Source of the DNA: Octopus vulgaris
Taxonomy: Eukaryota
Direction of reading: 5' to 3'
Assembly (NCBI GenBank): GCA_951406725.2
Contig: OX597815.1
Span: 169,136,001-169,200,000, forward strand
Length of the DNA: 64,000 bases
Made by a program: the position numbers and the translations under genes. This document shows, in pieces, positions 6,968-57,591 of the stretch; positions within the stretch are counted from its first letter, which is position 1, and each line of letters opens with the position of its first letter. Under the pieces are notes generated by a model. The model saw only the letters and a list, made by a program, of their open reading frames with translations, did no database searches and was not told where the DNA came from.

Positions 6968-6972
6968 ATGAA
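6968..6972 (+). CDS. PPRC1: PGC-1/PRC/Spargel-like coactivator, coding part of exon 1 (ATG AA)
   Basis: Canonical donor GTAAGT at 6973. ATG 6968 is the only ATG here that stays in frame through all downstream exons; an in-frame TGA lies just upstream. Confidence 0.6.
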
Positions 6973-14587: not shown

Positions 14588-14656
14588 GTGTTGTCATTGA
14601 AGCTACATCCTATAACAAACTTCTCTCTCAATTTGAAGAAATTGTAGCATCTTCGG
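14588..14656 (+). CDS. PPRC1: PGC-1-like exon 3 (SVVIEATSYNKLLSQFEEIVASS)
   Basis: TTTCCAG acceptor, GTAAGG donor, phase 1/1. LLSQFEE resembles the LLEQFE-type motif I recall from invertebrate PRC/Spargel-like proteins. Confidence 0.75.
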
Positions 14657-16938: not shown

Positions 16939-16966
16939 ATTTTTCACCAGTGCAAGATTTAACAAG
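16939..16966 (+). CDS. PPRC1: PGC-1-like exon 4 (28-nt microexon, DFSPVQDLT)
   Basis: Pyrimidine tract plus CTAG acceptor, GTTAGT donor; required to convert phase 1 to phase 2 between exons 3 and 5. Confidence 0.65.
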
Positions 16967-18728
16967 GTTAGTATATTACTAAACGATTCAAATGTTTATT
17001 TTTCTATATTTATATAGCTTGGCTAGGTCTGGCAGCATCTTCCATATTTGTTCATCTTGTGGCATGATTTTTACAGCTAGAAGCCTTTTCTGTCAACTAG
17101 CTGACTTACAGTGTGTCTACAATAGGATTAAGGAGTCTACTCTGTTCTGTCAGTTTCTATTCAGTGCTACTGCTCTCCTAGATAAGTTGCCTTCACTGTG
17201 GTTTGCAGAACCTGTCCTATGTGTGATTTATCAATGAGTTTGTTTGGAATTACCAGCTTACTGGGCAGATTGCATTCACTGTGGCTGAAAGGCTATGTCT
17301 TCATGATGTAAGGAAGGAATTTGGTTATCATTGAGAGGAGTGGCATGTAGAACAGTGATTAAGAAATTATTTGCATGGAGACTGAAGTTTCTTGTCATCC
17401 TATATTAGATTTTTCAGTTTGCAAATGTGGGAGGGGAGGTATTCCAGTCACCTGAAAAGTCTTGGCTTACTGTCTGATTTATTCTTATCTGTTCAGCTGA
17501 ATTTTTCTCGTACTCATGTTAAGAATATAGTGAATTCCCTGGGTTCCTAACCAATAAACTATTTAATGTGTAATTTATCATGTCCACATTTCCATGATTG
17601 CATGGGTTGGATGGAGTTTATTGTGGCAGATATCCTATGGCCAGATGCCCTTCCTGGTGCCAACCCTTGTTTCCAAGTAGGGTTATATTTGCCAATAGCC
17701 AAACATGCTTTTGCACAATATTGGAACTGGCATTCATTTACAACAATTGTGATTTCAAGACACATGTGCATGCATACTCATACAATGTTTCTTTCAGTTT
17801 CTATCTATCATAAACCACTCAAGGAGCTGCGATCAGCTTGGGGTGTAGTAGGTGACACTTGTTCAAAAGTGTCACGAAGTAGGACTGAACCTGAAACCAA
17901 GTTGTCAGGAATCAAACTCTTTAACCAAGATAACTAGTATTGATCACAAAGACCTTACTAAATTGGATTTGATAAATTTCTTTTATTGCATCATAGGAAG
18001 AGGAAGAATTGGATGTGAATGTGAGAACTATGTTCTGTTTAGGCTTTTGAAAGAGATAGGTATAACAGGGGGGGTTAAGACAATACAAATGGAATATGTT
18101 GGCTTATATAATCAGCTAGCTTGCAAAACATTGTAGAGTGGAGTAAGGAGTCATGCTCCATATTTTGCAGAGGTACATATATTTAGGACTGCATTATCCA
18201 ATGTGTCCATTCAATTTTTAAGATGGTTAGCTGTGATTTAACCTTTTCTTGACCATATCTATAATGAAGTACATAACCTACGTGTTTCAAATAATGTGAA
18301 AGTAATCAGGAATTTGGAGGAATTTATTAAAACTTAAGTCGTTATTAGGCAAATGTTTGGAAAATAACAAAACTGAAATTGGGATAATTTTTATTTTAAA
18401 CAAGAAGTTTTCTTTCATAAAACTAAAATTGGCATCAAAAGGATTAATGGGTATCTGGGTGTTATTTCTCGCAAGTTGAGTGACTATATGAGTGTTTCCT
18501 CATTGGCTTAAAGATGCAGATGCAGAATACTTAAGTGGTTGCAGTATGTTAGTAAGTGTAGAATTGTCAATCAGGTTATGTAATGAAGATAAGCTTCTAG
18601 ATTTGTGTGCAGTTCTTCATTGAAAAATGAAACTTGTTGCTGAGAGTCTCTAATTCTTTGGAGTTTCAGCCCTTTAGCATTTAAACTGGTTATATCAGGC
18701 CCAAATATTCTACCAGTTTTAAGTTCAA

Positions 18729-18950
18729 CCCTTTCGTTACTGTATTTATTTTGAGATGCTCTGTGTTTTTTTCAATTACGTTAAATATAACAAAGAATTT
18801 AGCAAAATAACTTAGTTACCATTTAGCTACTGTTAGAAACATAAACTGTGACTAAAGTTTGGTGGATGATTTTAATTCAAAACTTATAAAAACAAGACAT
18901 TTGTACTCAGAGAGCCAGAGCTGGTTTCAGCTAGGTTGGTAACGAAAGGG
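18729..18950. mobile_element. Second piggyBac-like MITE nested in the first family
   Basis: Perfect 12-bp TIR CCCTTTCGTTAC / GTAACGAAAGGG with TCAA on both sides; a related copy lies at ~26402-26579. Confidence 0.8.
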
Positions 18951-19230
18951 TCAAATCAACCAGATCTGGCTTCTCACACCTATACGATGTCCTTGTCAAA
19001 ATATACAATCATGATTGAAATCTAGAACTAGTGAGATAATGCATAATTAAATCAAACCAATTTGAATAAATAAACATGCTTGGTAGATTAGTCTGAATGC
19101 TAAAGGATTTAATATTTTTTGTGGTCTCATAAAGGAATTGAATGTTTGATGCAATCTTACTTGTGTGATATGTATAACTATGACAAGTGAACAGCAATAC
19201 TAAACTTTTTTTTCTTTTTCTTATCTACAG

Positions 19231-19523
19231 CGCAAAGACCTCAAGTATTTCATTAATACCTACAAGTTTCCAAAATATTACAACATACAAAACTGATGGC
19301 GTTTCCCATCAAGCTCCAACTATTACTGTATCTGCGACTAGAAACGAAAATTCACTTCCAAGAAAATTATCACTAGTGTCTAATGGTATTGTAAAAAAAT
19401 TAGTTAAAAATAGACATGGCATTTCTGTGTCTTCATTACTCAGAGATCCTAGAGTCAGTAAAATGAAGCTTGTAACTGATGTGCAGTGCAATGGTACCAA
19501 TGCTGTTAATGGCATATCGAATC
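19231..19523 (+). CDS. PPRC1: PGC-1-like exon 5 (SAKTSSISLIP...NGISN)
   Basis: CTACAG acceptor, GTAAGT donor; lies in the frame of ORF 19187..19813; phase 2 to 1. Confidence 0.8.
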
Positions 19524-20442
19524 GTAAGTATTATTTCTTTGTATTCAGAGTATATCTTAAAATTGTAGGACATAAATGCAATGTAAATAATTTGGCGTGT
19601 TATTTTTACTATAAATTATTTTCTACAAGTATCTCTATATATAAATGGCAAAATGTGTGTCTGTCCTTTATAGAAATCCACAATTTTTCAGTTAGAGGGC
19701 TTGCACTTTCTATGGTCATTCAAAACCGTCCAAGGGTGGTCGTGCACATCTTTACATTTCCTCAGTCACTCCGCAAAGCCATTAAAAAATCAATAGAAGT
19801 GACTTTTTTGTGAATTTTCTATCCAAAACCCAATTGAATGCCAGCTAGCTGTATGTGATTGGTGGGAGATTTGGACAGTACCCACGTGTATGTGCACATG
19901 CACGCAGCTGTATATGCATGCACTAGCACTATGACCTGGCGTTGCTAGTGTAAAATACTGTGTTATATGTTTTGGGGGTTGATAACATTTTTCACTGGTT
20001 TTAATTAAAATATTTTTACATATTCAGTGTCCATAACTATTTGTTCAAGAGCTACAAAATGATGGGGGTAAGTTATTCACTTATGGAAATTTGGTCCCAA
20101 AACTGGCAGCAATAAACTCTGCTGAATGCACCCAAGAGACTTGTGGTGTTGTTAAACTGGGTAGCAGATTAAGACTACCACTCAAGAGGAGAAACATTAT
20201 CTCTGACAGGCTTCCCTGCAGTTTCCACCTACCAAATATCACTTACAAAGTTTTGGCCCACCTAAGGTTATGGTAGGAGATACTTGCCTAAGGTACCATG
20301 CATTGGGATTAAATCCCAAACCAGACAACTGAAATACAAATTTATTAACCATACATATTTGTAAAATATTATATATCAAATTCAAAGTATAATATCTAGC
20401 ACAGTAAAAGAACAGTGTTAAATATTTGCTTATAAAAAGGTT

Positions 20443-20745
20443 CAGGCATGGCTGTGTGGTAAGAAGCTTGCTTCCCAACCATGTAGTTCTGGGTTCAGTC
20501 CCACTGCATGGTGTCTTCTACAGCTTTGGGCTAACCAAAGCCTTGTGAATAGACTTTGGTAGATGGAAACTGAAAAAATGCCCGTGTGTGTATGTTTGTC
20601 CCCATAACTTGGCAGATTGGCAAAACAGACTGATAGAATAAGTACTAGGTTTACAAAGAATAAGTCCTGGGTTGATTTCTTTGACTAAAATCCTTTAAGG
20701 TGGTGCTCCAGCATGGCTACAGTCAAATGACTGAACTGTGTAAAA
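20443..20745 (+). mobile_element. tRNA-derived SINE family with internal (TG)n (representative copy)
   Basis: GGCTGTGTGGTAAGAAGCTTGCTTCCCAACC...GGGTTCAGTCCCACTGC head. Other copies at ~1-300, 5400-5703, 15225-15606, 27188-27600, 39860-40250, 51137-51436 and 63325-63725. Confidence 0.8.
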
Positions 20746-21084
20746 AAAAAAAGTAAATCATGTGGATTTAACCCTTTGGTGTTCAGATTATGCTTATTCA
20801 TTCTTGTTTTGAATTAATCTTGCAATTTCAAGGGGTTGTGATTATTCAATTCGAGAATGACATTGTGGAGTAGGTGTGATAGGTTAAAACCAATCAGTTT
20901 GAATGTAAAACAGAATATTTGGGCCAGATATAGTCAGTTTAAATACTAAAGGGTTGTGTGATTTTAAAACTACAAAATAAGAAAATGTCCACAAAAAAAA
21001 GTAAAGTTAATGCTGAGAAATGAATGTTATTAATATATCTTAATTAGCATTTTTTTTATATAGATATATATGTATATATTTCAG

Positions 21085-21511
21085 AAAACCAAGTTAATGT
21101 GGCATCAGTTACTGATGTTGAGAATTCAGATCCACTCCAGTCAAATGTGTTAAAGCCTGTCAGTTCTAAATTGGCTGGAAACCAAACAATTAAACCAAAT
21201 AGTGAAACTAACCAAACTGGAATCTCTGCAGTAAATGATACAAAAGACTCTATACCACCAATTGTTCTACCAGAATTATCTATTACAAGGCCAGTTAAAA
21301 AAAGTGCTTCAACAGATGAATTTCCAGATTTACTGAAACCTCAAAATTTAACGAGATATGTCGAATTAAGTTCATTAAAAAGTCAAGATAATAATAATAA
21401 TAATAATAACTCTTCTAAGAAGCAAACTATCCAGTATAGGCCCTATTATAGTCATTTAAGGGATCATGACTACACACTTAATTGTCCTAGATTTATTCCT
21501 AAAGAAAAGAG

Positions 21512-21544
<33 letters not shown>

Positions 21545-22921
21545 ATCAACAAAAAGGTCATTTATAATTCCAAAGAAAAAGAAAAAACTTAGTGATGACC
21601 AATGCTTAAATAATTCTGTGAGCAATAATTCAAACAAAGACTCAGATAACCCTAATACGCAGGAATATTTTTCTAATGATCCACAAACTAATAGCTTAAA
21701 TCTTGAAAATGAAAATTCTAGTTCTCCAAATATACAGACAGCTAATTCAACATCTTCACCCCTACCTGTTAGTTCTGATGATACAAAGGACGTGCTTCAT
21801 GAAGAAAAACGAGAAACAGCTGAAGTCTTTGAATCTGTTGAAAAACAGAATATATCGTCTTGTGGATTAAGTGCCCTACATGATTATGTTAGCAGTGAAA
21901 ATCCATTTGATTGTCGAAATGTCGACAATCATGATTTTCGTACTTGTGATATGTGTAAGGATTTCTTCCCGAAACCTAAATCTGGTGAGAAATGCAATGA
22001 TGATGTTTTCCCTGATGTTGTGCCCTGTCAGATGTGTTGTCACTTAAGTGAAGACAATTTGACTGCAAACTATGTAAAACATTGCAATGTGAATAGTCCT
22101 CTCGGTCACTTGAATCCCTGTGGTTTGTTGTCTTGTCCTACAGATGAAGCAATCAATGCTTGTATTTTTGATTATCCTAATGATAAAGAATTGCGGAAGA
22201 TTTCTTCTACAGACGTTGAAGGGATCTTAGACTCTGACATGTTAGATTTTACTAGTTTAAAAACAATTGATCAGAACCATTTTAATCTCAAAAATTCTCT
22301 GGATTTGTTGATACCACCTTCTTTAAGACACAATCAAAAAACTTATGAAAATTTCTGTAACTTTCCTAATGAAATAACAGTAAATGAAAACAATGATAAT
22401 CTAAAAGAAAGTATTTTAAATGAAAATGATTTTTTATTTATTTCTGAACCAGTTAAAACATCTGTAGATAGTTCTTCAACAATAGAAATTAGTGATCAAG
22501 CAGTTAATGAGAATACATCTAATAATGAAAACTCCCCCATGGAGGAGGATCCTGATGAAAAAGATATGAGTATAGACGAAGGATCAGATGATGATGAAGT
22601 TCTGTTAAATAAAGTGCCAACATATTTAAGTGGGCTATCAACAGAAGCAATTAACAACAAATCTAAGATTAGTTATCAATCTTATATTGATAATGGGATT
22701 GATACATCTGACTTTATCAAAGATCCTTCTCCTGAACATGTGACTGAGCTATGTAAGATCCCAGCATACCATCAATCTTTCAGCAATAGTACAAAGTATG
22801 ATATAAATTCCTCTTCTCTGGTTCGTAAATATCCTTGGAGTGAAAGAAGAAAAAGTGCGATACGTCATCATCAGCAGTTTGACTCCGATTGTGAAACTTC
22901 AAAAAGTTGTCTTTCATCGTC
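21085..22921 (+). CDS. PPRC1: PGC-1-like exon 6 (1837-nt low-complexity exon with DHDY HCF-binding motif and basic NLS-like run)
   Basis: Covers the 608-codon ORF; TTTCAG acceptor, GTAAGT donor at 22922. DHDY at 21462-21473, PKKKKK, poly-N/poly-T and acidic tracts. Confidence 0.92.
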
Positions 22922-24834
22922 GTAAGTATTGATTTATTTTCAGTGTACAGTCTTGTGTACAGTCTTATTGAAATTATGATCATTTGGTCTTCATCACTGA
23001 GATACTGAAAGTAAAGCCAACATTTCTATTTAAATAAATTACTAGGTACCTCTACTGAATTGGCTTTTGTTTATACCTGTTCACCATGAACTCAATATCT
23101 AATCATTACTGGCTTTATTGATCATCGCTATTGCAGTATTTTTTTTCCTTTTTTCATGTATATATAGCTAAAATTATAGTTTTTATAAAAGAGGCTGTGC
23201 TGAAAAGTTCTTGGTTATGGGTTAAAGAAAATACAGGAGGATTAGTTAATTATGATTTTATTCAACATATTCCACTCTCAGATTTATTCATTTATTGCAG
23301 CAGTCCTTCAGTTTTTCTAAGCCCTGTAACAGGACTCAGAAGGTTGGGCCTCCAACCAGGCCTTTTGTTAAACCCTTAAAGCCAGAAGCTTGTCAGCACC
23401 CCTTCGTATACACTCCACCGGATCACTTTTGCCCAGTGGTCATTCAAAATCATTTCTTTCTCAATTTCTTAAATTTCATTCTGTCCATTCTCTTGCATGG
23501 ATGGTTACAAAGATCCAAGCAGCTAACCTAATTTCTTTTCAAACAATGATCTACATTTAATTCCCTCAAGATTTATTTCATAATGTATTAAAACTCATCA
23601 TAAACTGATTTAAAAATAATAGTTTTTCATTTTACTTCCCCCCCCCCCCCCCACATATAAAAGGATTTTTGTTCTGTGTTCGGCTCTTCTAAACATAAAA
23701 GCCTTTTACCGAATTTCATTGGAATGCATTAAATAATATATTTTTATTTGAATTATTAAAGATCTACTACTGCAGTGAGCTGGCAGAATCATTTAGCCTG
23801 CTGGACAAAATACTTTTTTAGGCATTTCTAACAGTAATATAGCCTCTATGGTTACTCTGCCAGAAATAAAAGCTAATTCTCCTTCAAATTACACTATCAT
23901 CATTTAACATCTGCTTTCCATGCTGGCATGGGTTGGACAGTTTGACAGAAGCTGGCCAGCCAGAGAACTGTACCAGGCTCCAATTGTCTGTTTTGACATG
24001 GTTTCTGTGACTTGACCCCCCCCCCATGCCAACCATTTAACAGAGTGTAGTGGGTGCTTTTTATGTGGCACCAGCACTTTTTTCTTTAACAAAAAAAGGG
24101 TGGACACGTTCAACAGTATAGTCGTGGTTGGAATGTTTTAAATCCTGGATATATTCAATCTATTTATGATTCCTCACAATAATATGAAATGTTGCGATCA
24201 TATCTTTGGTTTTCCTGCATAAGACAAATGATACACTAATCATTTTAATTATTCTCTCTTAATTAGGCACATTCTTAACATGGTTAAACTATTTATTGCA
24301 TACTAAACTTTATATTTATGAGTCAAATGCATTATTTGCATGCTTTAAAGTAAAAACAAGTAACACTAGTAAGCAAGAAATGCTTATATCTCTACAGCTG
24401 TTTCAGTGGGTCGCTTTTTACTTGTAGTCTTTAAGGATGATTAACAGTACCTTTACTACACATCTTTTCAGTTTCCCAATTTTCTATGTGCAAACAGCTC
24501 TAGAATTATTAGCATATAGTTCACCATCTTCTGGCCTTTTATTGACATCTGTTATTGTTTAATCATGAAGTTTCAGTAGCTGTCTCAACTTCATGGTTCA
24601 AATCCAACTACAAGCTCTGCATTGTATTTTGGAGCTGGGTACATTATTTGTTTCACTTGAAACCATACATGGGCAACTGTTTTTCAAGTAACAGGCCATC
24701 CTATTAAAAAGCATTCAAGGTAATTTTCCATTTAGGCATGCCATTCAGTAAGTCCTGCAAGCCACAAGTTGCCCGTGGTTTAACTTCATGTATTTTATGT
24801 TGAAATGGTTGGCACTAGTTTTTCAGAAGTTTCT

Positions 24835-25056
24835 TTAACCCTGCAGTATTCAGGTTACTGTCAAATGTTGCACTTATTTCTTCACATTGTTTAGAATTAC
24901 TCCTGCATTATCTTGCAGCATCAACATTTTAATGATGTAATTATTTGTTGAATAACATTGTAGAGTAGGTGTGGGAGACTAGATCTGGCTGGTTTGAACA
25001 TAAAATAAGTAGAATATTTGGGCCTGATATAGCTGGTTTAAATGCTAAAGGGCTAA
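24835..25056 (+). mobile_element. piggyBac-like ~220-bp MITE (TTAA-CCC...GGG ends); abundant family
   Basis: Ends ttaaCCCT... / ...AATGCTAAAGGG. Related copies near 562-757, 18670-19106, 20768-20955, 25057-25784, 28572-28760, 42647-42845, 53198-53402 and 57018-57241. Confidence 0.75.
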
Positions 25057-25094
25057 CCATTAGCATTTAAACAGGTCATATCCAGACAATATTC

Positions 25095-25601
25095 GGATGT
25101 TTACCTTTTGATCTACAGGTTTAAAAAATGATTTTTGGTAACTAAACACTTTCAAACTTTGGACACTGGTAGAATGTATCATATAAAACACTTTTTACTC
25201 TTAGCATTTTTGAGAAAAACTTATTTACGAAGTTATTTCACGTTAAAGTTTTCTTATTTCGGTAATTTCAACCAATCAATGTATATTCAGCTGAATAAAA
25301 TTACTGCTGTTGTTTGTCAACAAGAACTTCCGGCAGTGTATATTTCGTTTGTCACTGTTATTTATGACAACCCTAACCCCTTAAAACCAGTACAAACGCG
25401 CGAACAATGTCATAAATAAGTGACAAACGAAATATACACAGCCGATAGTTGTTGTTGACAAACAACGGCAGTAATACGTTTTTCTCAAAAATGCTAAGAG
25501 TAAAAGATGTTTTATATGACACATTCTACCAGTGTCCAGTTTGAAAGTGTTTAGTTACAAAAAATTATTTTTTAAACCTGTAGGTCAAAAGGTAAAGATC
25601 C
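25095..25601. mobile_element. Foldback MITE with ~125-bp TIRs, an internal second inverted pair and an 8-bp TSD
   Basis: GGATGTTTACCTTTTGA... / ...TCAAAAGGTAAAGATCC; CAATATTC duplicated at 25087-25094 and 25602-25609. Confidence 0.9.
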
Positions 25602-26019
25602 CAATATTCTACCTGTTTTGTGTTCAAACTGGCCAGAACTAGCCTGTCACCCCTATCCTACAATGCCATTCTAAAAATAATCGTTCATCAAAATTTCAAA
25701 GTTATGAGATAATTCATGAATAATTAAAAATAATGTGAATAAAATAAGAATTATATTAGATGGAGTAATCTGAATGCTAAAGAATTATAAATGAAAGTGT
25801 CTCAATTCAATATAGCAATAGCATATAGGTTTGAGTTGTGGTTTCACATTATAATGTTACATGGTTTTACTGACTCAAGATATTCTGATATTCTTTGTTC
25901 TGTCTTGTTGCAGATGAATTATATATTCCTCTGCTAACACTGTCATCGCCTCATCATTTCGTTTTGTCTTCTGTCTATTGTTGCTATCACTGATCGAACC
26001 TCTTTTTCTCAATTTTCAG

Positions 26020-26280
26020 CAGTTCACCATCACCTTCTGATTCTCCAACTGAAGAATTTCCAAGCTGGTCACAGTCAAGTTCAAGGTCAACGTCTCCCAG
26101 TAGTGATTCTAGAAGTGGTCAGTTTTCCCCATACAGTGATTACACATCATCACGGGATCGATCCCCATCACCATTCTCGCAGCATCGAAGTACATATTCA
26201 TTACAGAAAGTTTCAAGACAAAATCGAAATTATTCTCGTATTCGTTCTCCTTACAGATATTCTAATCATCACAGATCTAG
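26020..26280 (+). CDS. PPRC1: PGC-1-like exon 7 (Ser/Arg-rich RS region)
   Basis: Reads SSSPSPSD...SSRSTSPSSDSRS...RDRSPSP...RIRSPYRYSNHHRSR; NAGNAG acceptor, GTATGT donor; phase 2/2. Confidence 0.88.
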
Positions 26281-26882
26281 GTATGTACTATCATTGCAAT
26301 CATTTTAGTCCTCTTCTGCAATCGACAATGGAAATGGTGCTTCTTTTATGAACATTTTATAAAGGTGCCATTTCTCTTGTCAGACTATATTTTCTTTTCT
26401 ATTAACCCTTTAGATACCAACCCACTGAAACTGCCCTTGGTCCTATGATACAAACTTCCTATTTTAAAGTGATTTAAATTAAAATTTCATGTTAATTTAT
26501 ATTCCAAACCCCAGCTGAGTAATGTCAGTTATATGAAATAATTTTTTTAATTTTATAAATATGGTAACGAAAAGGTTAATTAATTCTCTATAAGTAATTA
26601 TTTGATAAGATTTAATATTACCCCTACCTCCTCTCTCTCTCTCTTAATCATATAATGTATTTTTATAAAAAGAAATAATCAATCTTTTCACATAATTTAA
26701 TTACACTCTGTTTACATTACATATTTGTAAAAGTATTTTAGTTTGGTTTTTCAGTGAAAAAGATTCGGAAACACTGTACTAGATTAAAGTTTTTCCTGTA
26801 TATAATATAGATATATAATTTTCACAGGTGATTTATCTCTTCCTTTTTGTGATGTATTTTATACTTTTTTTTTCCATGACAG

Positions 26883-26931
26883 ACGGCGAAGCTCTCTGAC
26901 AAATAAGTACCATGACAAAGACATACATCAG
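26883..26931 (+). CDS. PPRC1: PGC-1-like exon 8 (RRSSLTNKYHDKDIHQ)
   Basis: T-rich tract plus ACAG, donor GTAATA; phase 2 to 0 links the RS region to the RRM. Confidence 0.8.
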
Positions 26932-28193
26932 GTAATAACAGAATTCCTTTCAGTTATTTAGAATTTATCAAGTATTTAAAATTATAATTGTTGCTTAGCT
27001 TGTTTCAAGATTTTTCTGTTTAAAATTGTTCTATGTGCATTGAGCTTAGATAGTGGAATTTCATGAAGCTGTTTCTGGTAAAGTTGAATTTATTGAGTGG
27101 GAGGATAAAAACAAACAGTCCTAGGTGTAATGATAATGGTGATGCGTTGTTCAGTTTATAAGTTTATATGTAGCTTAAATAGTGCGTACATGGCTGTGTG
27201 GCTAAGAAGCTTGCTTCCTTTCCAACTATGTGGTTCAGTCCCACTGCACAGCACTTTGGCTGAGTGTCTTCTACTGTAGCCCCAGACTGACCAAACTTTT
27301 GAGAGAATTTGGTAGATACATGTTGAAAGAAATCCATCACATATGATGTGTGTGTGTGTATAAATGTGTCTACTCTTGTCTTGATATCATGTGGTGATTG
27401 TAAATGTGCTTAATTGTCATATAAGCAGTGTTGTTTGTTACTAGTCTTCCATGAAAAAACCTGTCTGGCCAGGGGAATATTACTTTGTTGAGAAACAGGT
27501 GAGGGTTAGTGGCAATAGGGCATCCAGGTGTAGAAAACTTGCCTCAACAAATTCCTTCTCATCCATGCAAGCATAGAAAAGTGGATGTTAGAACAATGAA
27601 TGATATAAACATTACTTTGTTTGCTTAAGTTTTTATCTCAAAGAAAATGGGTTGTATCACTTTCATGACTTGCATTAAACTATATATTTTTAATTTTTAT
27701 TTTATTTATTTTTATTAGCATAGATAAATTGTGGGCAAATTGTGGCCCACGAGATTTTCAGAATAGCATGCCTAACAAAAAATTGCCTTAGACGCCCAGT
27801 ACACTTATGTAAAGTGGTTGGTGTTACAAAAGGTATCATCCATCCATAGAAACCATGCCAAAACAGATGACTGGGGCCTGGTGCAGCTCTCCAGCTTACC
27901 CACTCTGGTCAAACCATCTAACCCATGGTAGCATGGGAAACATGTTAAATGTGGATTATGGGCCATGTCTGTCATGTGGCCTACGTCTCAGTGAGGTTGT
28001 CCGTGTGTGGCATGGGTGAAATGAATCTAGTTCAACTATGAAGTAGAAATGGAACTTTTATTGGTTGGCAAACTGGAGTGTATTACATAACATTTCCAGT
28101 TAGTCCAAATAATTTCCAAACCCACAGGATGTTGTTTTTTGTTGACATGTTATTATTGGTCTCCATCAAATAATTTTTAATTCATTGTTGCAG

Positions 28194-28315
28194 GATGAGC
28201 GCCGTATTGTCTATGTTGGCAAATTACCTCTTAATTACACCTCTAATCAACTAAAGGAGTTATTTAGTAAATGGGGCCCGGTAGAAAAAGTCAGCTTACA
28301 TTTCAGAGAGCATCA
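28194..28315 (+). CDS. PPRC1: PGC-1-like exon 9, RRM N-half (DERRIVYVGKLP...VEKVSLHFREH)
   Basis: ERRIVYVG is the characteristic RNP2 segment of the PGC-1/PRC RRM; canonical splice sites. Confidence 0.95.
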
Positions 28316-29394
28316 GTAAGTACATTTTTAGTTCTATTCTGTGCTTGTTTCTCATTAAGATAGCATGTAGTAAATAGTTCTAAAAATTTGACTGTTGCAT
28401 AAATTGCAGAGCCATTTCTTGAACTGTATAATGGTTAACTGGTTCTTAACAAGTCATTTGTTAATGAAAGCTGTCTTTTTTTTTCTTTTTTTTCTTTCTT
28501 TCTTTCTTTCTCAAATCCAGTTAGGTAGGCAGTAGTCATGAAAGCATTATAATGTTATTGAAAAGGAAATTTAAACCTTTAACATTCAGATTAATCTGTC
28601 CAATGTAATGCTTATTTATTAACATTGTTTTGAATTAATCCTTGTAGCCTCAAGATTTCAGTGATAGGATTGGTGTGAAAGGCCTGATCTGGCCAGTTTG
28701 AACATAAAAAGGGTTGGATATTTTGGCTGACATGGCTGGTTTAAATTTTAGAGAGTTAAACTTGATTATCGTTAGTGGTAGTTCTCCATTCTCATTGTTT
28801 TCTATGGGGTTTATTTTACAGCTGGATGTGTTTACAAGGGCATCCAGCCATAGAAACCGTGCTAAATCTGACATTGGAATTTTACGTGTCTCTGGTGCTT
28901 GACAGATTCTGTCAGGGAAAAGGATGTTAAATGATGACACCCTTTCTGTTGCCAATCCTTTTGGTAGCTTATACACACGTGTGTGTAAGAATTCCAGGTG
29001 GTGACATTTTTCAATTTTATAGGGAGAAAGTATATATATCATAACAGTCTGAAAACCCATTCTGGTTGACTTGAAAATAATTTTAATATTTTGATTATAA
29101 AATGCGATTATATGGAGTTTATAAAAAGAAATTATCAAAAAGGTATTCATAAATACAAAATTCAATTTAGTTTTAAAATATAAGTGAAATTAAAAAATTA
29201 AAATTTTATGTAAAAGCTCTTTGCAATTAAGTCTAAATGTACATATATAATTTATATTGTATGTGTATTTATAAGGGTATATGTGCATACATTGTGTGTT
29301 AATGTGTATATATATATATACATACACACACACACACATGCCCCATTATAATTAAAGTGTTACATTAAATTGTATGTCTTGTTTCTTTTTACAG

Positions 29395-29453
29395 GGATAA
29401 TTATGGATTTGTTACATTTTATCACCAAAGTGATGCCTACCTTAGTATGGATG
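29395..29453 (+). CDS. PPRC1: PGC-1-like exon 10, RNP1 (DNYGFVTFYHQSDAYLSMD)
   Basis: DNYGFVT matches the PGC-1-family RNP1; ACAG acceptor and GTATGT donor. Confidence 0.95.
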
Positions 29454-30576
29454 GTATGTATTAAATTTTAACCCTTTCATTACAATATTTCTGTCAAAGT
29501 ACACCACTTTTTTCAGTTGGTTTTGAAAAATAATACAAAAGTTTTAATTCAGATTACTTTAAACAGATGGCTTGATTCATAGATCTAGGTCTAGGAGTAG
29601 TCTGACTGGTTGTTATCAAGAGTTAAATATGATTCCAATATCCTCATCGGTTAACATCTGCCTTCCATGCTGGCATGGGCTGGGCGGTTTGGCAGGAGCC
29701 TGCATCAGACTTCTGTGTCTGTTTTGGTACAGTTTTTACAATTGGATGTCCTTCATAACACCAGCCACCCAGCAGGTTGGACTGTTATTAAAATCATGTA
29801 AGGCAGCAAGCTGGCTGAATTGTTAGCAAACTGGACAGACTGCTTACCAGCATTTCATCTGTCTGCATGTTTTGAGTTCAAATTCTGTTGCAGTAGGCTT
29901 TGCCTTTCATCCTTTCAGGCTCAATAAAATAAATAACAGTTAAGCACTGGGTTGATGTAATCAACTTTTTCCTCCTCTGAAATTGGAGGCCTTGTGCCAA
30001 AATTTGAAACCAATATATATTCACAGTACTAGTTCCACTATAAAGCCATAATTTTCTAGAACAGTGATGTGTGCGTGTGTGTGTGTATATGTAAACATGG
30101 AAATTACACACTAAAACAAAGTAATGTGGAACATCTTCAGTGTTTCACTGAGATTATCCTTGACGGGTCAATGTTTTGAGAAAATTTGCCATTGGTGACA
30201 TTTCTGATGTAGAGATGCTATCTTTGGCTCCCCCTGCCTGCCGCCTCTTTATAATTCATAAACAAGAGCATCATTCTAGGCTTTTACAATGTACCAGTTC
30301 CTGGTTTACTGCATTTTTAATGCTGAGAGTGGCATGGTAGAATCCCAGTAAATTTGTCCAATGAACATTGGCTTTTCACTGAGGTTTACATCCTTCACAC
30401 TATTGCAAAAGATTAAATACACACACACACAGCTTTGTTGCCATATGGTCTCAAGCTCTGTCTCATTGCATGAAACCATGGGCAAGAGTCTTTTAGTGTA
30501 GCCCCAAAAATGAAAGATGGGGAAACACGCAAGTCAAGACAGGGAGACACATACATATACCCAGAACTACGCTAAT

Positions 30577-30763
30577 AGCTTAAGAGTGAAATTTAGGATT
30601 TTTTGGTTTTCTGTAAATTGATTTTGATAAAACTTTCCCCAGCTGGTTTGAACACTATGGCAACACCATTGTTATGTTTCCATAGTGTGCAAACCAGCTG
30701 GGAAAAGTTTTATGAAAATTGATTCACAGAAAACTGAGAAATTTTAAATTTTACTCTTAAGCT
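30577..30763. mobile_element. Palindromic (hairpin) MITE, ~187 bp
   Basis: Arms of ~85 bp, AGCTTAAGAGT...CCAGCTGGTTTGAACACTATGG / CCATAGTGTGCAAACCAGCTGG...ACTCTTAAGCT, around a short loop. Confidence 0.8.
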
Positions 30764-31303
30764 TGGTTGTATGTGTGTATGTATAATATATATCTATATA
30801 GAACACACTTGCACAAGATGCCATGCAGTGGGACTGAACTTGAAACCATGTAGTTAGAGAGCAGACTTCTTACTATCTGTATTCATACACACACACACAC
30901 CCTGTTTGTGTGTGTACATGCTCATGTGATGAAAAATAGTGGACAAATTGTCCTGTAACTCTGCGTGAGTGGAATAGAAGATCTCTTGCTTGAAGAAACG
31001 GGTAAGGGTTAATGACAAAGGTATTCGGCTGTTAAACAATTCTCCAATTAATGCTAGCATGGGGGAATGGACATCAAACAAACTAAAACACACAAATGAC
31101 AAGATTCTGTGCAGTTTCTTTCGTACCAAATTCCACTCATAGAACCATTAATCAGCCTGTTTATGATGTGCAGTAGGCTGTGAATCAAATTTCTCAATTA
31201 AATGTGCATCTGCTTCTATATTGCTTTATCTTGTTCTTTTATTCAATTGTTATCCATTAAGAATTATATTTACTAATTACTTTTTTTTTATTTATTTTTT
31301 TAG

Positions 31304-31387
31304 CAACTAGTAAAATAAAAGATTTTCCATTTGATGTTTGTTTTGGTGGAAGGAGAACATTTTGTCAGGAGTCTTATGCTGATCTTG
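31304..31387 (+). CDS. PPRC1: PGC-1-like exon 11 (PFDVCFGGRRTFCQESYADL)
   Basis: FDxCFGGRRxFCxxxYADLD is diagnostic of PPRC1/PPARGC1/Spargel. Confidence 0.96.
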
Positions 31388-31644
31388 GTAAATATCTTAT
31401 TATTTTTATTATTTTCACCGGTGTTGCTTCCGTTTTTTATTCCTATAATAGGGATATTAGAATTTAAAATCAGACAATGTGAAATAGAGCAATAATATGA
31501 AACTTGGGTGTTCTTTTGGTCAACATAATATCTTTAAACGAGCAACTTTTTTTTATTATCAGGAATTATAAACCTGCTTACTGTGTACAAAATGGTAATG
31601 TGTGGTAGTATTTTTTAGTGAAATGTGAATAGTAAAAAAAAATG

Positions 31645-32140
31645 AGGACCTAGAAGAATGTGTGTGCAAGAGAAAAGACTGCTGCTGTGGCCATGTAAAG
31701 CATATGAACAAAGACGGTTCCATCAAGAGGTGCCGATCTCTAATTGTAGAGGAAACATGTGGAAGGGGTAGAGCAAGGAAGTTGTGGGATGAAGTGGTGA
31801 GAAAAGATCTACAGATGTTGGGATTCAGAGGTGGGATGGCAGGGAACCAAGCTTCCTGGCAGTTTGCTGTGCTTGAAAAGACATGTCAAACTAAGTAAAG
31901 TTTGGTTGTCCTTGCATACAGGTTCATCCCTTGCAACCTCTCCAGCTGAGCATCCCTAATCTCATGGCCTCGTCAGTGCTGATGCCATGTAAAAACACCT
32001 AGTACATTCTGTAAAGTGATTGGCGTTAGGAAGGGCATCCAGCCATAGAAACCATGCCAGAAACAGCCTTTCAGCTGGTTGGCTCCTGTCAAACCATCCA
32101 ACCCATGACTGCATGGAAAATGGACATTAAATGATGATAT
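31645..32140 (+). mobile_element. RTE-like LINE 3' fragment
   Basis: GHVKHM...GRGRARKLWDEVVRKDL C-terminus followed by the (GAT)n-tailed 3' UTR repeat. Confidence 0.75.
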
Positions 32141-33037
32141 TGCAGAAGCTGATTCTTGTTGCTGTTGTTGACGGCTTTATGTTTAGGCTGAGGTATAAGT
32201 TAAATTTGGAGCTTAAATGTAGTCTTTAAGCTATAGTTTTATTTCCCTTTGCAATCCCATAAGCCTGATTGGCATAATAAACTGTCTACTGTTCACTTGT
32301 ATTTTATATCATATTTTTGATATTTACCAAGCACTTTTCAGTACTGCAAACAATCATTAGTGAAATAAAACAAAAAAAAAAAAAAATGCATACCGACTTG
32401 ATGTGTGTCATGTCACAGGCCATGTGCATATTGAACATTTGTGAATTTGGTTATAAAATCTACATCGCTCTGAATCTCTTGTTTGAATTTTGATAAATCT
32501 TTTACTGTTCAACATGAAGCCCATTTAACATGTAGTTACTGTAATCCCTTGCCATATAGCGGTTTGTTATTTAAGCTTACAGTGATTCCTCCGTGGTGTT
32601 GTTTTGCAGTTATGATAAAAATAAATATATAAAAAAAAATATATGCAGTACTGTTTCTACTTTGCAGATTTTCACCTATCACGGGGTTTTGAAATGTAAT
32701 ACCTGTGATAGTCAAGGGATTATTGTACTCAGATATTCACATTTCAAATGTCAATTTTTTTTGAGACCCTGTATGTGTGTATAAAAAGTATTGGTTAGCT
32801 CAGAGCTATGGTAAAAGACACTTGCCTAAGCTGTTCACAATGGTTATTAACATTAATTTAATTGCATCTTTGACATTAAGCAGGTCATAGAAATGGCAAA
32901 ATATTTGTGTCAGGTTAAGGAAATTCTAGTTCTTCCATGATGTAATTGCTAATATCTATTGTGTTTAAGTGAAATTTTTTAAACATGCAATCAATATTAG
33001 ACATTTTTTTATTTATTTTATTTATTTATTTTTTCAG

Positions 33038-33141
33038 ACAGTTTGGTGGAAGATGAAGAGGAGTTTGGAACAGTAATCCAAACATCTAATGTGTCGTTTG
33101 AGCAACTTTTAAAAGATTGGAAGCGTGACAGGAAACATTGA
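33038..33141 (+). CDS. PPRC1: PGC-1-like terminal coding exon 12 (DSLVEDEEEF...SFEQLLKDWKRDRKH*)
   Basis: TTTCAG acceptor; FEQLLK corresponds to the FDSLLK tail of vertebrate PGC-1; TGA at 33139-33141. Confidence 0.93.
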
Positions 33142-37886: not shown

Positions 37887-38942
37887 TTAGTGACCTTAGA
37901 CTCTAGGCCAGAAGGATGCTAAGAAATAAACCAATCTGGAAAAGAAGGATTTGGAAGCTTAAGGACCCTTCATATGGTCAGAGATTTAGTGACATCCTAA
38001 TTGAGAAATTCAGTGAAAGAGAGGAGGAGGTACAGATTTGTGACATAGAGAGCAACTGAGGGGACAGCTTGCTGAGTACCACAGAGCAAATGTGTAACTG
38101 GTGTAAAGTCCCATTCAGACCTAGGGTGGTGGTGGAACAATGTGGTAGACAGCCATTAGAGCTAAGAAACAGGCCTGGAAGAATGTGGGTAGCAGGGAAC
38201 TGTACCAGATTGCCAGAAGGGATGCTAGGAGACAAGCATGTCTAGCCAAGGGAGAAGCATGAAAGAAGTTTGCCTATGTTCAGCGATGTGAAGACCTTTG
38301 GGGATGTGCTGTGCTTGAGAGGACCCATCAATCCACATGCACCCGTGCTGGAGGTATGTAAAGAACACCTTTTAAGTGTTGGACCTCACAGGCAAAGTGG
38401 CTGAGTTCCTTTCAAGCATTGGGCCTCATGGAAGCAAAATGGCTGAGCTCCTTTTGAGTGTTGGGCCTCAGAGGCAATGACTGAAACCTTTGGCATTATG
38501 TTGTGCTTGAGAAGACCCATCAAACTAAGCAAGATTACAGTCGTGACAGATACTGGTGTCATGCAAATGGGCACCCATGCTGGTGGCACGTAGAAGCACC
38601 CATTACAGTCTTGGAGTCGTTGGTATTAGGAAGGGCGTCCATCTGAAGAAAACTTTGCCAGTATGGACAATGGACGTTAAATGATGATGATATATATATA
38701 TATATATAGGGAAAGTTTACGAAAAAGACGAAGACAGGTGGTGTACAAAGCAGACAGATGTATTAGTATAACGCTCAGGAATAGAAAAAGTCTTTTGTTT
38801 CGAGCCTACGCCCTTCCACAGAAAGGTACACAGAAAAAACAAGGAGAGAAAAAAAATGTGTGTAGTGGCTAACGATCTATCATGGGGAAAGTAATACTTT
38901 GGTCATAGAATCCTCTCATATACACGTACACACACACACAAG

Positions 38943-38996
38943 ATAAAACAAGAGTTTCGGATGCTGAGGTGGAAATCCACGCCACCATCTATTCAT
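38943..38996 (-). ncRNA. Degenerate sister hammerhead copy
   Basis: AUGAAUA (2 changes from CUGANGA), a homologous 31-nt stem II and GAAACUC; stems I and III have decayed. Confidence 0.6.
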
Positions 38997-39097
38997 ATTA
39001 CATTTAAAGGTAAATTCCTCTATCTACATAATATTCTTTCTTTTGTTATCTTACTGTTTTTATCAATATATATATATAATATGTGACAATTAGTTGG

Positions 39098-39172
39098 TTG
39101 TCATAATAAAACTCAGAGTTTCGGATGCCGAGGCTGAAGTCTGCTCCGGCACCTCATCAGTTATTAAGACAA
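39098..39172 (-). ncRNA. Type I hammerhead ribozyme with intact catalytic core
   Basis: Minus strand reads UUGUCUUAAUAA-CUGAUGA-[31-nt stem-loop II]-GAAA-CUCUGAG-UU-UUAUUAUGACAA. Stem I pairs 11 of 12 bp, stem III is the near-palindromic ACUC-U-GAGU, and the cleavage triplet is GUU. Confidence 0.8.
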
Positions 39173-39301
39173 ATGGTATGAGAAAAAAACCCATTGAATA
39201 GAAGGAAATTACTCCAATAGGCATGGGGAAAGTAATACTTTGTTCATAGAATCCTCATATACACACATACACGTACGCACACACACATGTATGTATATAT
39301 A

Positions 39302-39659
39302 TCTATATATACGTTTGTGTAACAGATATTTTGGTTGGATTATATAGTCATTGGTGTTACATTACTTTCTATATTCCGTAACTGTCACAATATACTTTTC
39401 TTTGCCTGAATTTTTTTTTTTTTGTGTGTGTGTGTGTGTGTGTGTGGGGGGGGGGGTAATCAGTTGATTAGATTGATCCCCAGTACACAACTGATACTTA
39501 ATTTGTTGACCCCGAAAGGATGAAAGGCTAAGTTGATCTCGACAGAATGTGAAGATAGACGGGCATAATATACAAACATTTCTCATGACACCAGTACACT
39601 GTTTACAGATGCTTACATTTTTTTAATGTTTTCCGTGAATTTTTCACGGGTCCAGCTAG
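39302..39659 (+). mobile_element. Helitron-like element with nested SINE fragment
   Basis: A|TC start, CCGTGAATTTTTCACGG hairpin ~10 nt before CTAG|T. Confidence 0.55.
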
Positions 39660-52569: not shown

Positions 52570-55394
52570 CTAAAAAAAAAAGGAAAAAAAAAGGAAAATA
52601 GAGAAAAAAAGGGTTAAAGAATATTCACAGAGCAAACATCGAGAATTGTTTGTATTTTGGCACAATAAGGAACAAAAGCAGTCTCTACAAGATATCTCCT
52701 GCCAGGAGGAGATGGTCGTCATAACTGATTTTTGTTGGTTGAATATCAAGACGTATTTAAAACAATTAACTTTATGAAAACTTACCATAATTTTTGGCAT
52801 ACAAGTTAAATTTTTCAGACCAAAATTTACAGCTATAAAAGAGGTAGGTTGACTTATACACCAAAATGACTTTAGAGGACCAAAAATTCCATGTCGAATG
52901 CAGAAAGACTTGGAAAGATAGTGATGATGTTTGAATGTTTACACTACATGTTCACACTATATACTATGCTGACTTGTATTCCAGAAAATACAGTATACAT
53001 AGATAATAAGAATCAAGGAGCTGAAATGCCAAGAAAGATGCATTTAATGGCCTCTATGAAAAAGGCATTGACTAAATGAATGTCTATTAGGTTCAATGAT
53101 GAGAATACAGTACTTGATCAACTGAGAGCTATGTGGCTGAATATTCCACAGACATAAGTACCCTTATTGTAATCTTCAGGCAGAACCAATGTAACAGGGC
53201 CAGTCATATCAGACTTAAACATTCTACTTGTTTTATATTCGAACTGGCTAGATTTGACCTCTCACACCTACTTTACAATGTCATTCTAAAAGTAAACAAT
53301 CATATTAATAAAATCTCGAAGCTATAAGAGAATGTATGATTAATTCAAAAACAATAACTAAGCATTACATTTGATAGAGTAATCTGAATGTTAAAGGGTT
53401 AAATTATAGGTACAGTCTATCTAATGGGATCCAGTACAGTTTGCTCTACTCAGTTTCACTCAGAAGGATTGGGCTGACCTGATACTATGGCAAAAGACAT
53501 TTGCCCAAGAGGAGATGCAGTGAGATCAAACTTGGATGCCTTGTGATTGTGAAGTGGATTTCTTAACCATTTGGCTAGGCTGCATCCAATGGTGTCGATA
53601 GAAATGCAAACATTAAGGAAAGAATGACAAGTGGAAAGAGGTAAAAAGTATTATTGCAAGCTGAAGAGACTCTCAAGAGTCTATAGGTAGATATAGTAGC
53701 AGTAAAGAAGATGGAAAATGTAATAGGAGTTCAGGACTGGATATTTTTGTGGTGGACCGTTGGAGAAATGAGACCCATGAGGTGGAGTGGATGCTGCAGT
53801 AAGTGTTGCTCGCCATTCTTTGTGGCAATGCCATCACAGTCATAACTGCAGAGAATGGCTGAGCACACCATTTGCTCTGGGATATGTGGCCCATTGCTCC
53901 TGCCTCCATCTTCTGTTGCTTTACCCAACCCCACCTTTTTTTTCCTTTTCTTTCTTTATCTTTTTTTTTTCCTGCTGCTCCCCTTGGTGAAGAGGATTGG
54001 CCTGCAAGAGTCCTGTGCTGGTGCCACATAAAACATACTTGTGCCAATGTCATGTAATAGCACTTGTGTGGTACCATGTAAAAGTACCCAACACACTCTG
54101 TAAAGTGGTTGGCATTAGGAAAGGCATCCAGCCATAGAAACCATGTCAAATCAGATTGGAGCCTGGTGCAGCTTTTCAGCTCTGGTGAAACCATCCAACC
54201 CATGCCAACATGGACAACGGATGTTAAATGATGATGATAATAATATAAAAAAAAAAGTGAAGAATAGATAATTAAATCAAGTGCCTGTTTTCGTTATGCT
54301 AGTAATGGGCAACAGTACTCTATTCCATTCTGATATGTCAGTACTTTATAAAATGGAAGTAACTGTAAAACATTTTTTTCTCCATAGAGAAAACTAAATT
54401 TCATTGATACAGTTGTTTTTTTTTCTATGTTGACTCAATGTTTCTAGTCTAATATCTGTAGAGAATGATTCTTGGAGGGATAATTCTCAGTCAATACAGA
54501 GAGAAATGCAAGAGTGATTTTTGAGATCTCTTTTGGCCAAAAATATTTACTGACTCTCACACAACACAGCAGTTAGCCTGCCTTGAAAAATCTAAAACAT
54601 ACTCACTTGTAGGACAATCACTACTGACTTTCAGTAATGGACAATTAGAGACAAAGAAAGCATCAAGGGGAAGAAAAACACACAAATAAACAAATAAAAT
54701 TTTTTTTTTTTATTATTAAAAGAAACAAAAAGGTGGTGAGATAGCAGAATCATTAGCATGCCAGATAAAATATTTAGTGAAGGTGGCGAACTGGCAGAAA
54801 CATTAGCATGCCGGGCGAAATGCTTAGCGGTATTTCGTCTGCCGCTACATTCTGTGTTCGAATTCTACCGAGCTTGACTTTGCCTTTTATCCTTTCGGGG
54901 TCAATTAAATAAGTACTAGTTAAGCACTGGGGTCGATATAATTGACTTAATCTGTTTGTCTGTCCTTGTTTGTCCCCTCTGTGTATAGCCCCTTGTGAGC
55001 AGTAAAGAAATAAGATAAAATATTTAGTAGCATTTCATCCAACTTTATGCAGTGAGTTAAAATTCTGCTGAGGTTGACTTTGTCTTTCATCAATAAAAAT
55101 AAATCATCGTTTAATGTCCACTTTCCATGCTAGCATGGGTTGGACAATTTGACTGAGTACTGGCGAACCAGATGGCTACACCAGGCTCCAATCTGATCTG
55201 GCAGAGTTTCTACAGTTTTTTATGTGCCACCTGTACAGGAGCCAGTCCAGCAGCACTGGCAACGACCTTCGAGCAAACATCTTTTCAGAGTCTGTAAAAT
55301 AAATACCAGTTGAACATTGGGGTCAATGTAATCAACTAGTACTCTCCCCCAGTTGTAAAGGAATTTACAAAAAAAAAAAATTTTTTTTACTCAC

Positions 55395-55523
55395 CATTCC
55401 TTCATCAACACGGAAGAAAGCAACCTGGCAGGGACCATTCAAAAGATTTGCAAAACAGATAAACGCATCAGCCACCTCCATGTTCAACAGCAACACAGCT
55501 GCCAAGAAAGACATTCCTTGAAC
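55395..55523 (-). CDS. TBC1D14: TBC1D12/14-like exon with glutamine finger ([43 protein letters not shown])
   Basis: YxQ motif formed across the splice junction; GTGAGT donor. Confidence 0.96.
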
Positions 55524-57591
55524 CTGTCAATAGAAAAGAAACCAAAAAAAAAAAAAAAAAACGTCATTAGAGATAAAATTAAGCTGTTGTTGCATTGTAT
55601 TCTTGTTCTAATTACTTCAGTTTCATCAGTTGCAGGCAGGTGAATAATGTGTGAACATTTGAAGGAAGTAGCCAAAAGTTATTTAAGTTGGCACAAGACT
55701 GTATGTCGAACAAGTTTATCCAGTAATAAAGTCATTTTAGTGACATTTTATTTTATAAATGACAGTGTCCTATGACCTTGATATTTCATTAATACTTTTT
55801 TTTTATCTTTATTTTTTATTGATGTAGCCTTGTTTACCACTGACTCATTCATCACTGATTGTTGTTGTTGTTAAGCAACAAGACAGGTAAGGGTGATTAG
55901 GTGATGGTCTAGGGCTTAGGGGCAGGAGACCCCAGACCTTGGAAAAAAAAAAAAAAATGGCCATCTTGTTGTAGTCGAGGGCTCTTCGTTGATGCCTGAC
56001 ACCACTGGGAGGTGGCCCTCGATGTCGCTGGAAATGGAGATCTCCAGGTTCAAATTCTTGAACGGCTTCATCACTGATTGGGAACACAGTGCATTCAATT
56101 TTGAACCATGTTGCACTCATGGATGGATCTGGGATAGCATGCGCCCCAGCAACCATCCACAGTACTCAGCTACTCAGAATGTGCTGATTATTGCTTATGT
56201 TTACATGCCCATGCTATGAGGCTGTGTATTTTTTTTTATAAGAATTTATGTACTCATATCCATCAACATAAAACCAATGAACAGTAAAACTATGAAAGCA
56301 CCTAAACCTAACAAATGATACAGTTGAATGTATTCTCTACAGGTAAAAGTAGAAATGATCAAGAAATTATGTTATAGTGGAAGCTTTGCTGTTGTGGGCC
56401 ACAAGTTTGATGTCAGTGAATCTATTATTGTGTTTTTTTGTTTTGGAGCCAACCCGTGATAAACTGGCATTCTGTCAGTGTTGACAACAAGGGTTCTAGT
56501 TGATCCAATCAATGGAACAGCCTGCTCGTGAAACTAATGTGTAAGTGGTTGAGCACTCCACAGACACATGTACCCTTGATGCAGTTCTCAGTGAGATTCA
56601 GCGTGACACAGAATGTGACAAGGTTGGACCTCTGAAACACAGGTGCTACTCATTTTTGCCAGCTGAGTGGACCCTGTGACGAAGAAGGAGAGATGTAGTA
56701 CAAATCAATTAAAAGAATACTTAAAAAAGTAAAAAGGGCCAAAAAAAAAAAGAAGGTAAAGTTACCTTTTCGAGTCATACCAACTCATAAGGGCCAGTCT
56801 CCCGGTTTCATGGCACATATATTCCCCACCTGGACGGGACACCAGTCCGTCACAGGATGACTCATTTTTCATAGCTGACTGGACTGGAGCAATGTGAAAT
56901 GAAGCATTTTGCTCGAGAACACAGCATGTCACTCGGTTCGGGAATTAAAACCACAATCTTATGATCAGGAGTCCAACATCCTAACCACTAAGCTACATGC
57001 ATCCACTAAAAGAATATTTAACCCATTAGCATTTAAACTGGCAACATCCAGGCCAAATATTCTATCTGCTTTATATTTAAATTGGCCAGATCCAGCCTCC
57101 CAGAACTATCCTACAATGTCATTTTAAAAATAAACAATCACTTCATTGACATTTTGAAGGTACAAGATAATGCATGATTAATTCAAAATAATGTGAATAA
57201 ATAAGCATTACAGTTGACAGAATAATTTGAATGCTAAAGGGTGAATGAATGCTATGGCAGCATTTTAAACTTTTAAATATAAGAAACTAAAATTTGAATG
57301 CTTACTAATTTGTAAAGAGGGCTTTACCTTGCTCTCAGGAAGTAAGAAAGTACTATCTTAATTGTGTGTGTGTGTGTGTTCGTGTGTATTAGTGTCTCTC
57401 CTCAACCACTGCTTGACAACTGGTGGTGGTGTATTTATATCCTTGCAACTTAGCAGCTTGGCAAATGAGATCAATAGAATAAGTACAGGGGATCAATTCA
57501 TCAACTAAAATTCTTCAAGGCGGTGCCCCAGCAGGACCAGAATCCAATGATAGAAACAAGTAAAAGATAACAGAAACAGATGTAAACTTAC

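Follow-up and report, generated by a model that had tools for sequence, protein, structure and literature searches.

The window, by which we mean the whole stretch of 64,000 nucleotides of Octopus vulgaris DNA analysed here and numbered from its first letter, contains a gene on the plus strand (14557-33141) which encodes a 972-aa RRM protein, 99% identical to Octopus sinensis LOC115228566 and annotated as uncharacterized. The HDY motif, the RS-rich exon and the C-terminal RRM of this protein may place it in the PGC-1/PRC coactivator family. Short repeats are present at other places of the window. Two 100% identical tandem copies of 243 bp (3239-3729) contain a short (TA)n and are either a very young duplication or an assembly error; core and descriptor scans detected no hammerhead core in them. 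On the minus strand at 1560-1515, CUGAUGA...GAAACGUU words are located after a (TA)n tract and run into a common repeat; the helices do not form there and the type I descriptor gave no score. Further downstream, a 42-bp tandem repeat (2.7 copies, 76% alike) occupies positions 38368-38477, and a SINE-like repeat on the plus strand (38540-38690), of which the window has about ten further copies, terminates in (GAT)n(TA)n.

The region of interest is marked by a direct repeat, the two copies of which start at 38881 and 39222 and hence have a period of 341 bp. The unique core of the repeat is 35 nt long and identical between the copies at 34 of the 35 positions, and its pattern occurs twice in the window as against zero times in 100 shuffles. 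The first copy (38881..38915, plus strand) is named R2 and shares its five letters at 38881-38885 with the end of a neighbouring element C, while the second copy (39222..39256, plus strand) is named R1. Both copies are followed by (TA)(CA)n tracts which resemble each other and are interrupted internally in the same way; the one after R2 covers 38916..38939, and the one after R1 belongs to a (TA)(CA)(TA) microsatellite at 39257..39311 (both without strand). No stop-to-stop frame of at least 100 aa overlaps the region, and the longest frame inside 38881..39288 is 63 aa. Both the period of 341 and the lack of an open reading frame between the repeats, described in an earlier note on this DNA, are confirmed by these observations. 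In size and in being non-coding, the interval is comparable to retrozymes (150-450 bp). The 341-bp repeat is absent from the list of Tandem Repeats Finder, its second unit ending after about 60 nt. Inside the interval, the right arms of two hammerhead-like motifs, B and A, are located at 38952 and 39116, exactly 164 bp apart and in the same orientation on the minus strand, and none of 100 shuffles reaches two such matches. A riboswitch-like role of these motifs for the RRM gene was considered and rejected, because they are antisense to it and the gene ends 5.6 kb away (measured from about 33141, with the length of the 3' UTR not included).

Motif A (39098..39172, minus strand) is an intact type I hammerhead with the core CUGAUGA / GAAA / GUU. 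The CUGAUGA is located at 39160-39154 and the GAAA at 39122-39119, which places C3 at 39160, A9 at 39154, G12 at 39122, A15.1 at 39119 and U16.1 at 39111. Helix I is paired at 11 of 12 positions, helix II at 8 of 8 and helix III at 4 of 4 around one base, and the motif is open at helix I. All elements of a type I core (CUGANGA, GAAA, A15.1-U16.1 and an NUH site) are present together with the three helices, and the GUU is predicted to be cleaved between 39110 and 39109. Motif A is the sole match of the type I descriptor in the 64 kb, and 60 shuffles gave one loose match and none as strong. No Rfam model matches the window at gathering level, and the 20 Rfam matches at E<=10 include no hammerhead and represent microsatellite noise. 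With the letter that is most frequent among relatives of motif A at 39152 (99%) and at 39131 (84%), the two G-U pairs of helix II become Watson-Crick pairs, and position 39115, the unpaired centre of helix III, varies; these letters support the predicted fold. As a monomer, helix III has a pair probability of only 0.04-0.05 and the active fold (-14.2 kcal/mol) compares with a minimum of -22.4 kcal/mol; for the dimer, the active fold is at -40.5 and the minimum at -52.3 kcal/mol. Motif A does not have an intact partner in cis at this locus and is probably silent here.

The hammerhead is a part of copy A (39077..39258, minus strand), which consists of R1, a spacer, motif A and a 33-nt tail that ends at a (TA)n (39067..39076, strandless); the microsatellite starting at 39257 lies at its 5' end. 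Within the tail, a 6-bp hairpin (39085-39104, minus strand) competes with distal helix I in the predicted fold, and this hairpin is not evident in the tail of subfamily B described below. Knowledge of the copy structure comes from read contigs of 7 of the 24 listed runs, and in four runs most of 39067-39269 is contained in single contigs, with 12-27 differences. Relatives of A and B are also present in contigs of three runs which we guess to be RNA, although contigs cannot show ends or strand; one contig of 245 nt fits 39145-39267 with two differences and one gap. Searches of viral, metagenome and prokaryote collections gave no match to a 22-base pattern of the family, as expected for an animal repeat. 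The earlier note was right in proposing a non-coding, hammerhead-bearing repeat family, which has many relatives that keep the pairing. Copy A is likely to be the 5'-truncated 3' end of a Penelope-like element (PLE) or of a non-autonomous derivative of one.

Motif B (38940..38995, minus strand) is a damaged, 5'-truncated copy of a sister subfamily. Its core reads AUGAAUA instead of CUGANGA, so that C3 and G8 are lost, where the loss of G8 refers to the window copy and the letter of the B family at core position 8 is not displayed in the contigs. Helix I is absent (5 of 10 positions paired, the longest run being 2), helix II contains a G-G mismatch and helix III is cut to 2 bp. A3 and U8 could pair with each other, but A3 derives from an inverted piece. 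The window copy of motif B therefore has neither the type I core nor helix I. The two hammerheads 164 bp apart that had been reported for this interval are confirmed in their spacing and common orientation, but only A is intact.

Sequence matching 38952-38995 normally has other flanks on both sides in the read contigs. Loose ends are found before 38952 (42, 8 and 6 contigs per run, agreement 0.84-0.92) as well as behind 38995 (28, 3 and 3 contigs per run). The flank before 38952 is the tail of A with six differences, all of which fall on places where the tail of A itself varies (39093, 39095, 39099, 39101, 39105 and 39115). The other flank supplies C3 and the 5' strand of helix I, and the helix I so restored pairs with two compensatory changes relative to A, as seen by eye from the loose ends. 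Because the usual flanks match the tail of A and provide a compensated helix I, B represents a sister subfamily of A of which the window copy has lost both flanks.

The DNA that replaces the 5' strand of motif B is the family's own distal tail in inverted orientation. This segment D (38994..39066, plus strand) overlaps motif B by 2 nt and starts with the seven letters at which copy A ends, and the (TA)n at 39067..39076 separates the facing 3' ends of D and copy A. Contigs with the tail of A continue past the end of the window copy into sequence which is found on the opposite strand at 38994-39040. The loose ends concerned lie before 39069, 39074 and 39077 (3 contigs in run X11, 5 and 4 in X15 and 4 in X16); with 3-5 contigs for each run, they stem mostly from what we guess to be RNA, and the consensus from run X1 is noise (0.53). 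A 19-nt part of such an end matches only 39005-39023 on the minus strand with two mismatches, which was reached in 1 of 100 shuffles, and one DNA contig (run X8) carries the joint 39038/39079 on opposite strands. On the evidence of these loose ends and this joint, segment D is the distal tail of the family, reversed. B and D together are shaped like an insertion with two arms, between which about 20 nt were skipped. Joints on opposite strands are not confined to this place: they account for 8 of the 15 listed of 31 joints in one contig comparison and for 5 of 7 in another, as might be expected from inverted PLE copies, and several of those near 39110/39170 may only reflect the symmetry of helix I itself. 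Joints going back by 164 or 341 are not found among all 7 of the one set and the 15 listed of 31 of the other, a result that has to be read with the fact that contigs cannot show absence.

Element C (38710..38885, minus strand) is a short and extremely abundant repeat, with a summed depth of 0.9-4.1 million over 38734-38878 in run X1 as compared to 18-64 for single contigs. Its 3' side adjoins the (TA)n at 38690-38709. Its relatives end at 38885 and continue with a few other letters and (TA)n, not with the direct repeat. Behind 38885, loose ends are seen in 149, 95 and 151 contigs of runs X1, X4 and X5 with an agreement of only 0.43-0.44, and joints in single contigs at 38879, 38880 and 38884 skip the direct repeat. 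Element C meets R2 at the 5-nt microhomology 38881-38885.

A third hammerhead-like motif, missed in the earlier note, is present in element C at 38825-38792. This motif C (38792..38825, minus strand) is of the minimal type I kind and is broken in the window, because the GU after GAAAC is missing and helix II is changed. The family form appears, from the sequences of the contigs, to have a core CUG-U-N-GA with U at position 6, an extra A, a 4-bp helix II, an ACGU palindrome as helix III, a GUA site and a 4-bp helix I. In contigs over this motif, 'AC' is inserted behind 38796, where loose ends also occur, 38812 is changed from C to T in 96% of the X1 depth, and position 7 (38817) is variable. 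The window copy thus has U at position 6 and no GU after GAAAC, and it contains neither an intact core nor a cleavage site. The core change A6C is reported to give low hammerhead activity (PMC3088659), and the term 'A6U' is absent from the text of that source.

R1 is native to copy A: in four runs there are diverged contigs, with 12-25 differences, that pass from the spacer or the hammerhead into R1. An interpretation of R1 and R2 as a target-site duplication around an insert was rejected for this reason. R2 is instead likely to be a local copy of R1 with its flank. A monomer of 164 nt was also rejected: motif B cannot form helix I, and the z of -2.6 for a 164-nt circle comes from local hairpins. 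Retrozymes are recognised by two consecutive units with complete hammerheads (10.64898/2026.07.22.740005), and as only one intact motif is present, the interval does not contain two such units and a 164-nt product would be without a second cut site. The idea that the interval is a monomer plus a partial copy of a single retrozyme family is not supported; it is rather a mosaic with an inverted piece.

Depth of the read contigs differs strongly between the parts of the interval. Along 38884-39261 in run X1, the summed depth ranges from 44.5 to 402,916, about 10,000-fold, compared to 36-64 for single contigs. It is 44.5 for R2, 403,000 for B, 1,200-1,400 for the joint of B and D and 327,000 for D. 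Within copy A, it falls from 346,000 in the right arm to 53,000-57,000 in the left arm, 2,300-9,100 in the spacer and 1,000-2,300 in R1. Summed contig depth is not copy number, and the dip at 38996-39023 reflects in part the divergence of the window copy. A stepwise fall towards 39260, on the 5' side of A, is nevertheless what 5' truncation would be expected to produce, whereas a tandem unit should be roughly flat. None of the contigs listed spans the 341-bp interval.

Taken together, we favour, with a probability of about 0.75, the reading that the interval is a nest of three or four separate 5'-truncated, hammerhead-bearing ends of PLE type in one microsatellite, together with a local copy of one of these ends, only A having an intact core. 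According to this model, a PLE GIY-YIG endonuclease would nick (TA)n and the PLE reverse transcriptase would copy the 3' end of the RNA by target priming; such copying would usually stop early and might have left copy A. The first target was probably supplied by the (GAT)n(TA)n of the SINE-like repeat. B and D could be a single insertion primed from both target strands, with D as the direct 3' end and B as the inverted inner part, in which about 20 nt between B and D were skipped and 2 nt shared at the joint, so that helix I of B was lost. Later elements would have landed in the repeats left by earlier ones. Finally, the end of C might have been joined through the five shared letters to a copy of the neighbouring R1 and its flank, either by templated joining or by local duplication, and this is one of several possible routes to the direct repeat. 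A direct repeat made in this way, by joining the end of C to a copy of R1, is not the boundary of a unit. The role of the hammerhead in the parent RNA would be to trim the transcript at its 3' end, and as helix III is palindromic, cleavage there would be likely to take place as a dimer. Among the frames at the locus, no PLE reading frame is linked to A, B or C, and Pfam searches with 11 frames (10 of the 22 frames of at least 100 aa, and the RRM exon) gave only RRM and neither reverse transcriptase nor GIY-YIG. The connection to Penelope-like elements drawn in the earlier note is nonetheless upheld by the Hydra-type architecture of motif A. Overall, the interval is likely to be ordinary PLE debris, a known kind of element, and its description as a unit is likely to be wrong.

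An unlikely alternative is that two copies of A once lay head to tail or as neighbours, that the left one was deleted down to R2 by recombination at the five letters common to C and A, and that B and D were inserted between them. In that case A, its 5' end fixed at R, would be a short element without autonomy, near to a retrozyme monomer of ~180 nt. Such a history would account for the common end point of R1 and R2 and for their identity at 34 of 35 positions, and it agrees with R1 being native to A in many diverged relatives. However, it needs an extra deletion, the depth falls towards R instead of being flat, and two relatives run past 39252 with about 120 unlike letters, which are either an upstream element or only flank.

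Somewhat less probable is that the 341 nt correspond to one chimeric circle with a single active hammerhead (A), and that a PLE reverse transcriptase, after priming at the five letters in common with element C, went about 1.2 times round it. The exact period of 341, the duplication of the repeat together with a similar flanking tract, and a size within the 150-450 bp of animal retrozymes (PMC7229834) are in line with such a circle, as is the retrozyme norm of one intact motif per unit; resembling tracts after R1 and R2 are also expected if a circle is copied more than once. In 59 of 60 shuffles the fold is poorer than that of the 341-nt circle (z -2.7), but the difference results from local hairpins and microsatellite pairing, and the predicted fold breaks helix I of motif A; in most circles of animal retrozymes, by contrast, the ribozyme stays free (PMC7229834). 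Moreover, only 1.1-1.2 units are present, with an internal inversion and a dead motif, the range of depth along the unit speaks against it, and the source locus would need two A motifs around the composite. A bolder form of this proposal is marginally less credible again. Here the circle would be a chimeric RNA with a captured dead sister ribozyme, an inverted tail and microsatellite and one working hammerhead. A Penelope-type enzyme would have primed on five bases in common with the end of another element and made 1.2 turns of it, so that the locus would show a retrozyme being born from PLE debris; element C would in addition be a minimal hammerhead that works with U at core position 6. That the arrangement is partly an error of assembly or consensus in a microsatellite-rich spot is very improbable: the lack of a listed contig across the stretch (the best run contains 0.48 of the words of the stretch) would fit, but short-read contigs break at repeats in any case, the joints make sense in where they lie (family end, microhomology) and the copies of the direct repeat are not identical.

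If the nest of PLE-type ends is the correct reading, in octopus DNA, with its stacks of such ends in microsatellites, a direct repeat around two hammerhead-like words is insufficient evidence of a retrozyme. B and D would provide a compact case of an inverted insertion with two arms, subfamilies A and B one of natural covariation in helix I, and family C an abundant core variant for assay. Were the circle true instead, the locus would document the origin of new retrozymes from PLE ends.

The arrangement of B and D may be compared with the 5' inversions of L1 elements ascribed to twin priming, which reportedly consist of an inverted inner arm and a direct 3' arm with a small gap and microhomology at the joint. 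B and D resemble them in the arms, the gap and the joint microhomology, but they belong to another class of retroelement and lie in a microsatellite, so that neither a poly(A) nor a target duplication can be read. By title, we found no paper that applies twin priming to PLEs.

Compared to animal non-LTR retrozymes (Cervera and de la Pena 2020, PMC7229834; Li, Clavereau and Pollet 2026, 10.64898/2026.07.22.740005), the interval is alike in being non-coding and AT-rich, in its type I hammerhead, in its size and in the tie to PLE terminal repeats. It differs from the elements described there in that full units are not arranged in tandem, just one motif is complete, an internal piece is inverted and, as far as the contigs show, the unit does not form a coherent family. 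A literature search combining hammerhead or retrozyme with octopus or cephalopod yielded no paper describing an octopus retrozyme as such. A 2026 repeat annotation of O. vulgaris (PMC13282606) lists 31 recently active Penelope-like families, and the word 'ribozyme' does not occur in its main text.

The family of motif C is similar to the minimal PLE hammerheads (Cervera and de la Pena 2014, PMC4209133) in having no real helix III, a palindromic 15.2/16.2, an extra base after A9 and a short helix I. According to that study, most minimal motifs are single and tied to truncated PLEs, and PLE hammerheads cleave weakly and as dimers. The apparent U at position 6 of the C family is not seen among the variants examined from there, and the window copy is broken.

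The closest counterparts of copy A are the PLEs of the Hydra clade (Craig et al. 2021, PMC8557442), including Hydra-1_Obim of Octopus bimaculoides, a published octopus hammerhead of this clade which ends 36 nt after the site. With an element of the same build in print, the suggestion that the family is possibly not yet described in octopods was too strong. The sequences of A and B are different from Hydra-1_Obim, the helices of A are longer (helix I of 12 positions, helix II of 8 bp with a 14-nt loop), the end beside B adjoins (CA)n unlike the (TA)n of the clade, and no reading frame is linked to A or B, while elements of the clade have a single ORF which combines a reverse transcriptase with a GIY-YIG endonuclease at the C-terminus. 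Six exact motifs searched against the consensus files of PMC8557442 gave no match except one chance match in an algal element. Given this unlike sequence and the lack of a consensus match, assignment to the clade is one of architecture; with no linked reading frame either, copy A is better described as working like a Hydra 3' end than as an established member. The architecture itself is closely similar. A type I hammerhead near the 3' end, with a palindromic 4-bp helix III around one base, is common to both; by eye, such a helix III is present in 17 of the 26 Hydra-clade rows of file S2 (PMC8557442), five of the 26 share ACTC-N-GAGT with motif A and ten cut after U. The frequent GUU site, the extra base before GAAA and the short tail (33 nt in A, 36 nt in Hydra-1_Obim) are likewise shared. 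PLEs tend to insert beside earlier copies (PMC6765202), and 5' truncation, together with an inverted copy and a tail at one of the ends, is frequent among them (PMC8557442). A preference for (TA)n targets is tabulated for 26 of 27 Hydra families (PMC8557442), and in the window the 3' ends of A, D and C all adjoin (TA)n; the fall in depth and the inverted segment D agree with the 5' truncation and inverted copies of all EN+ PLEs.
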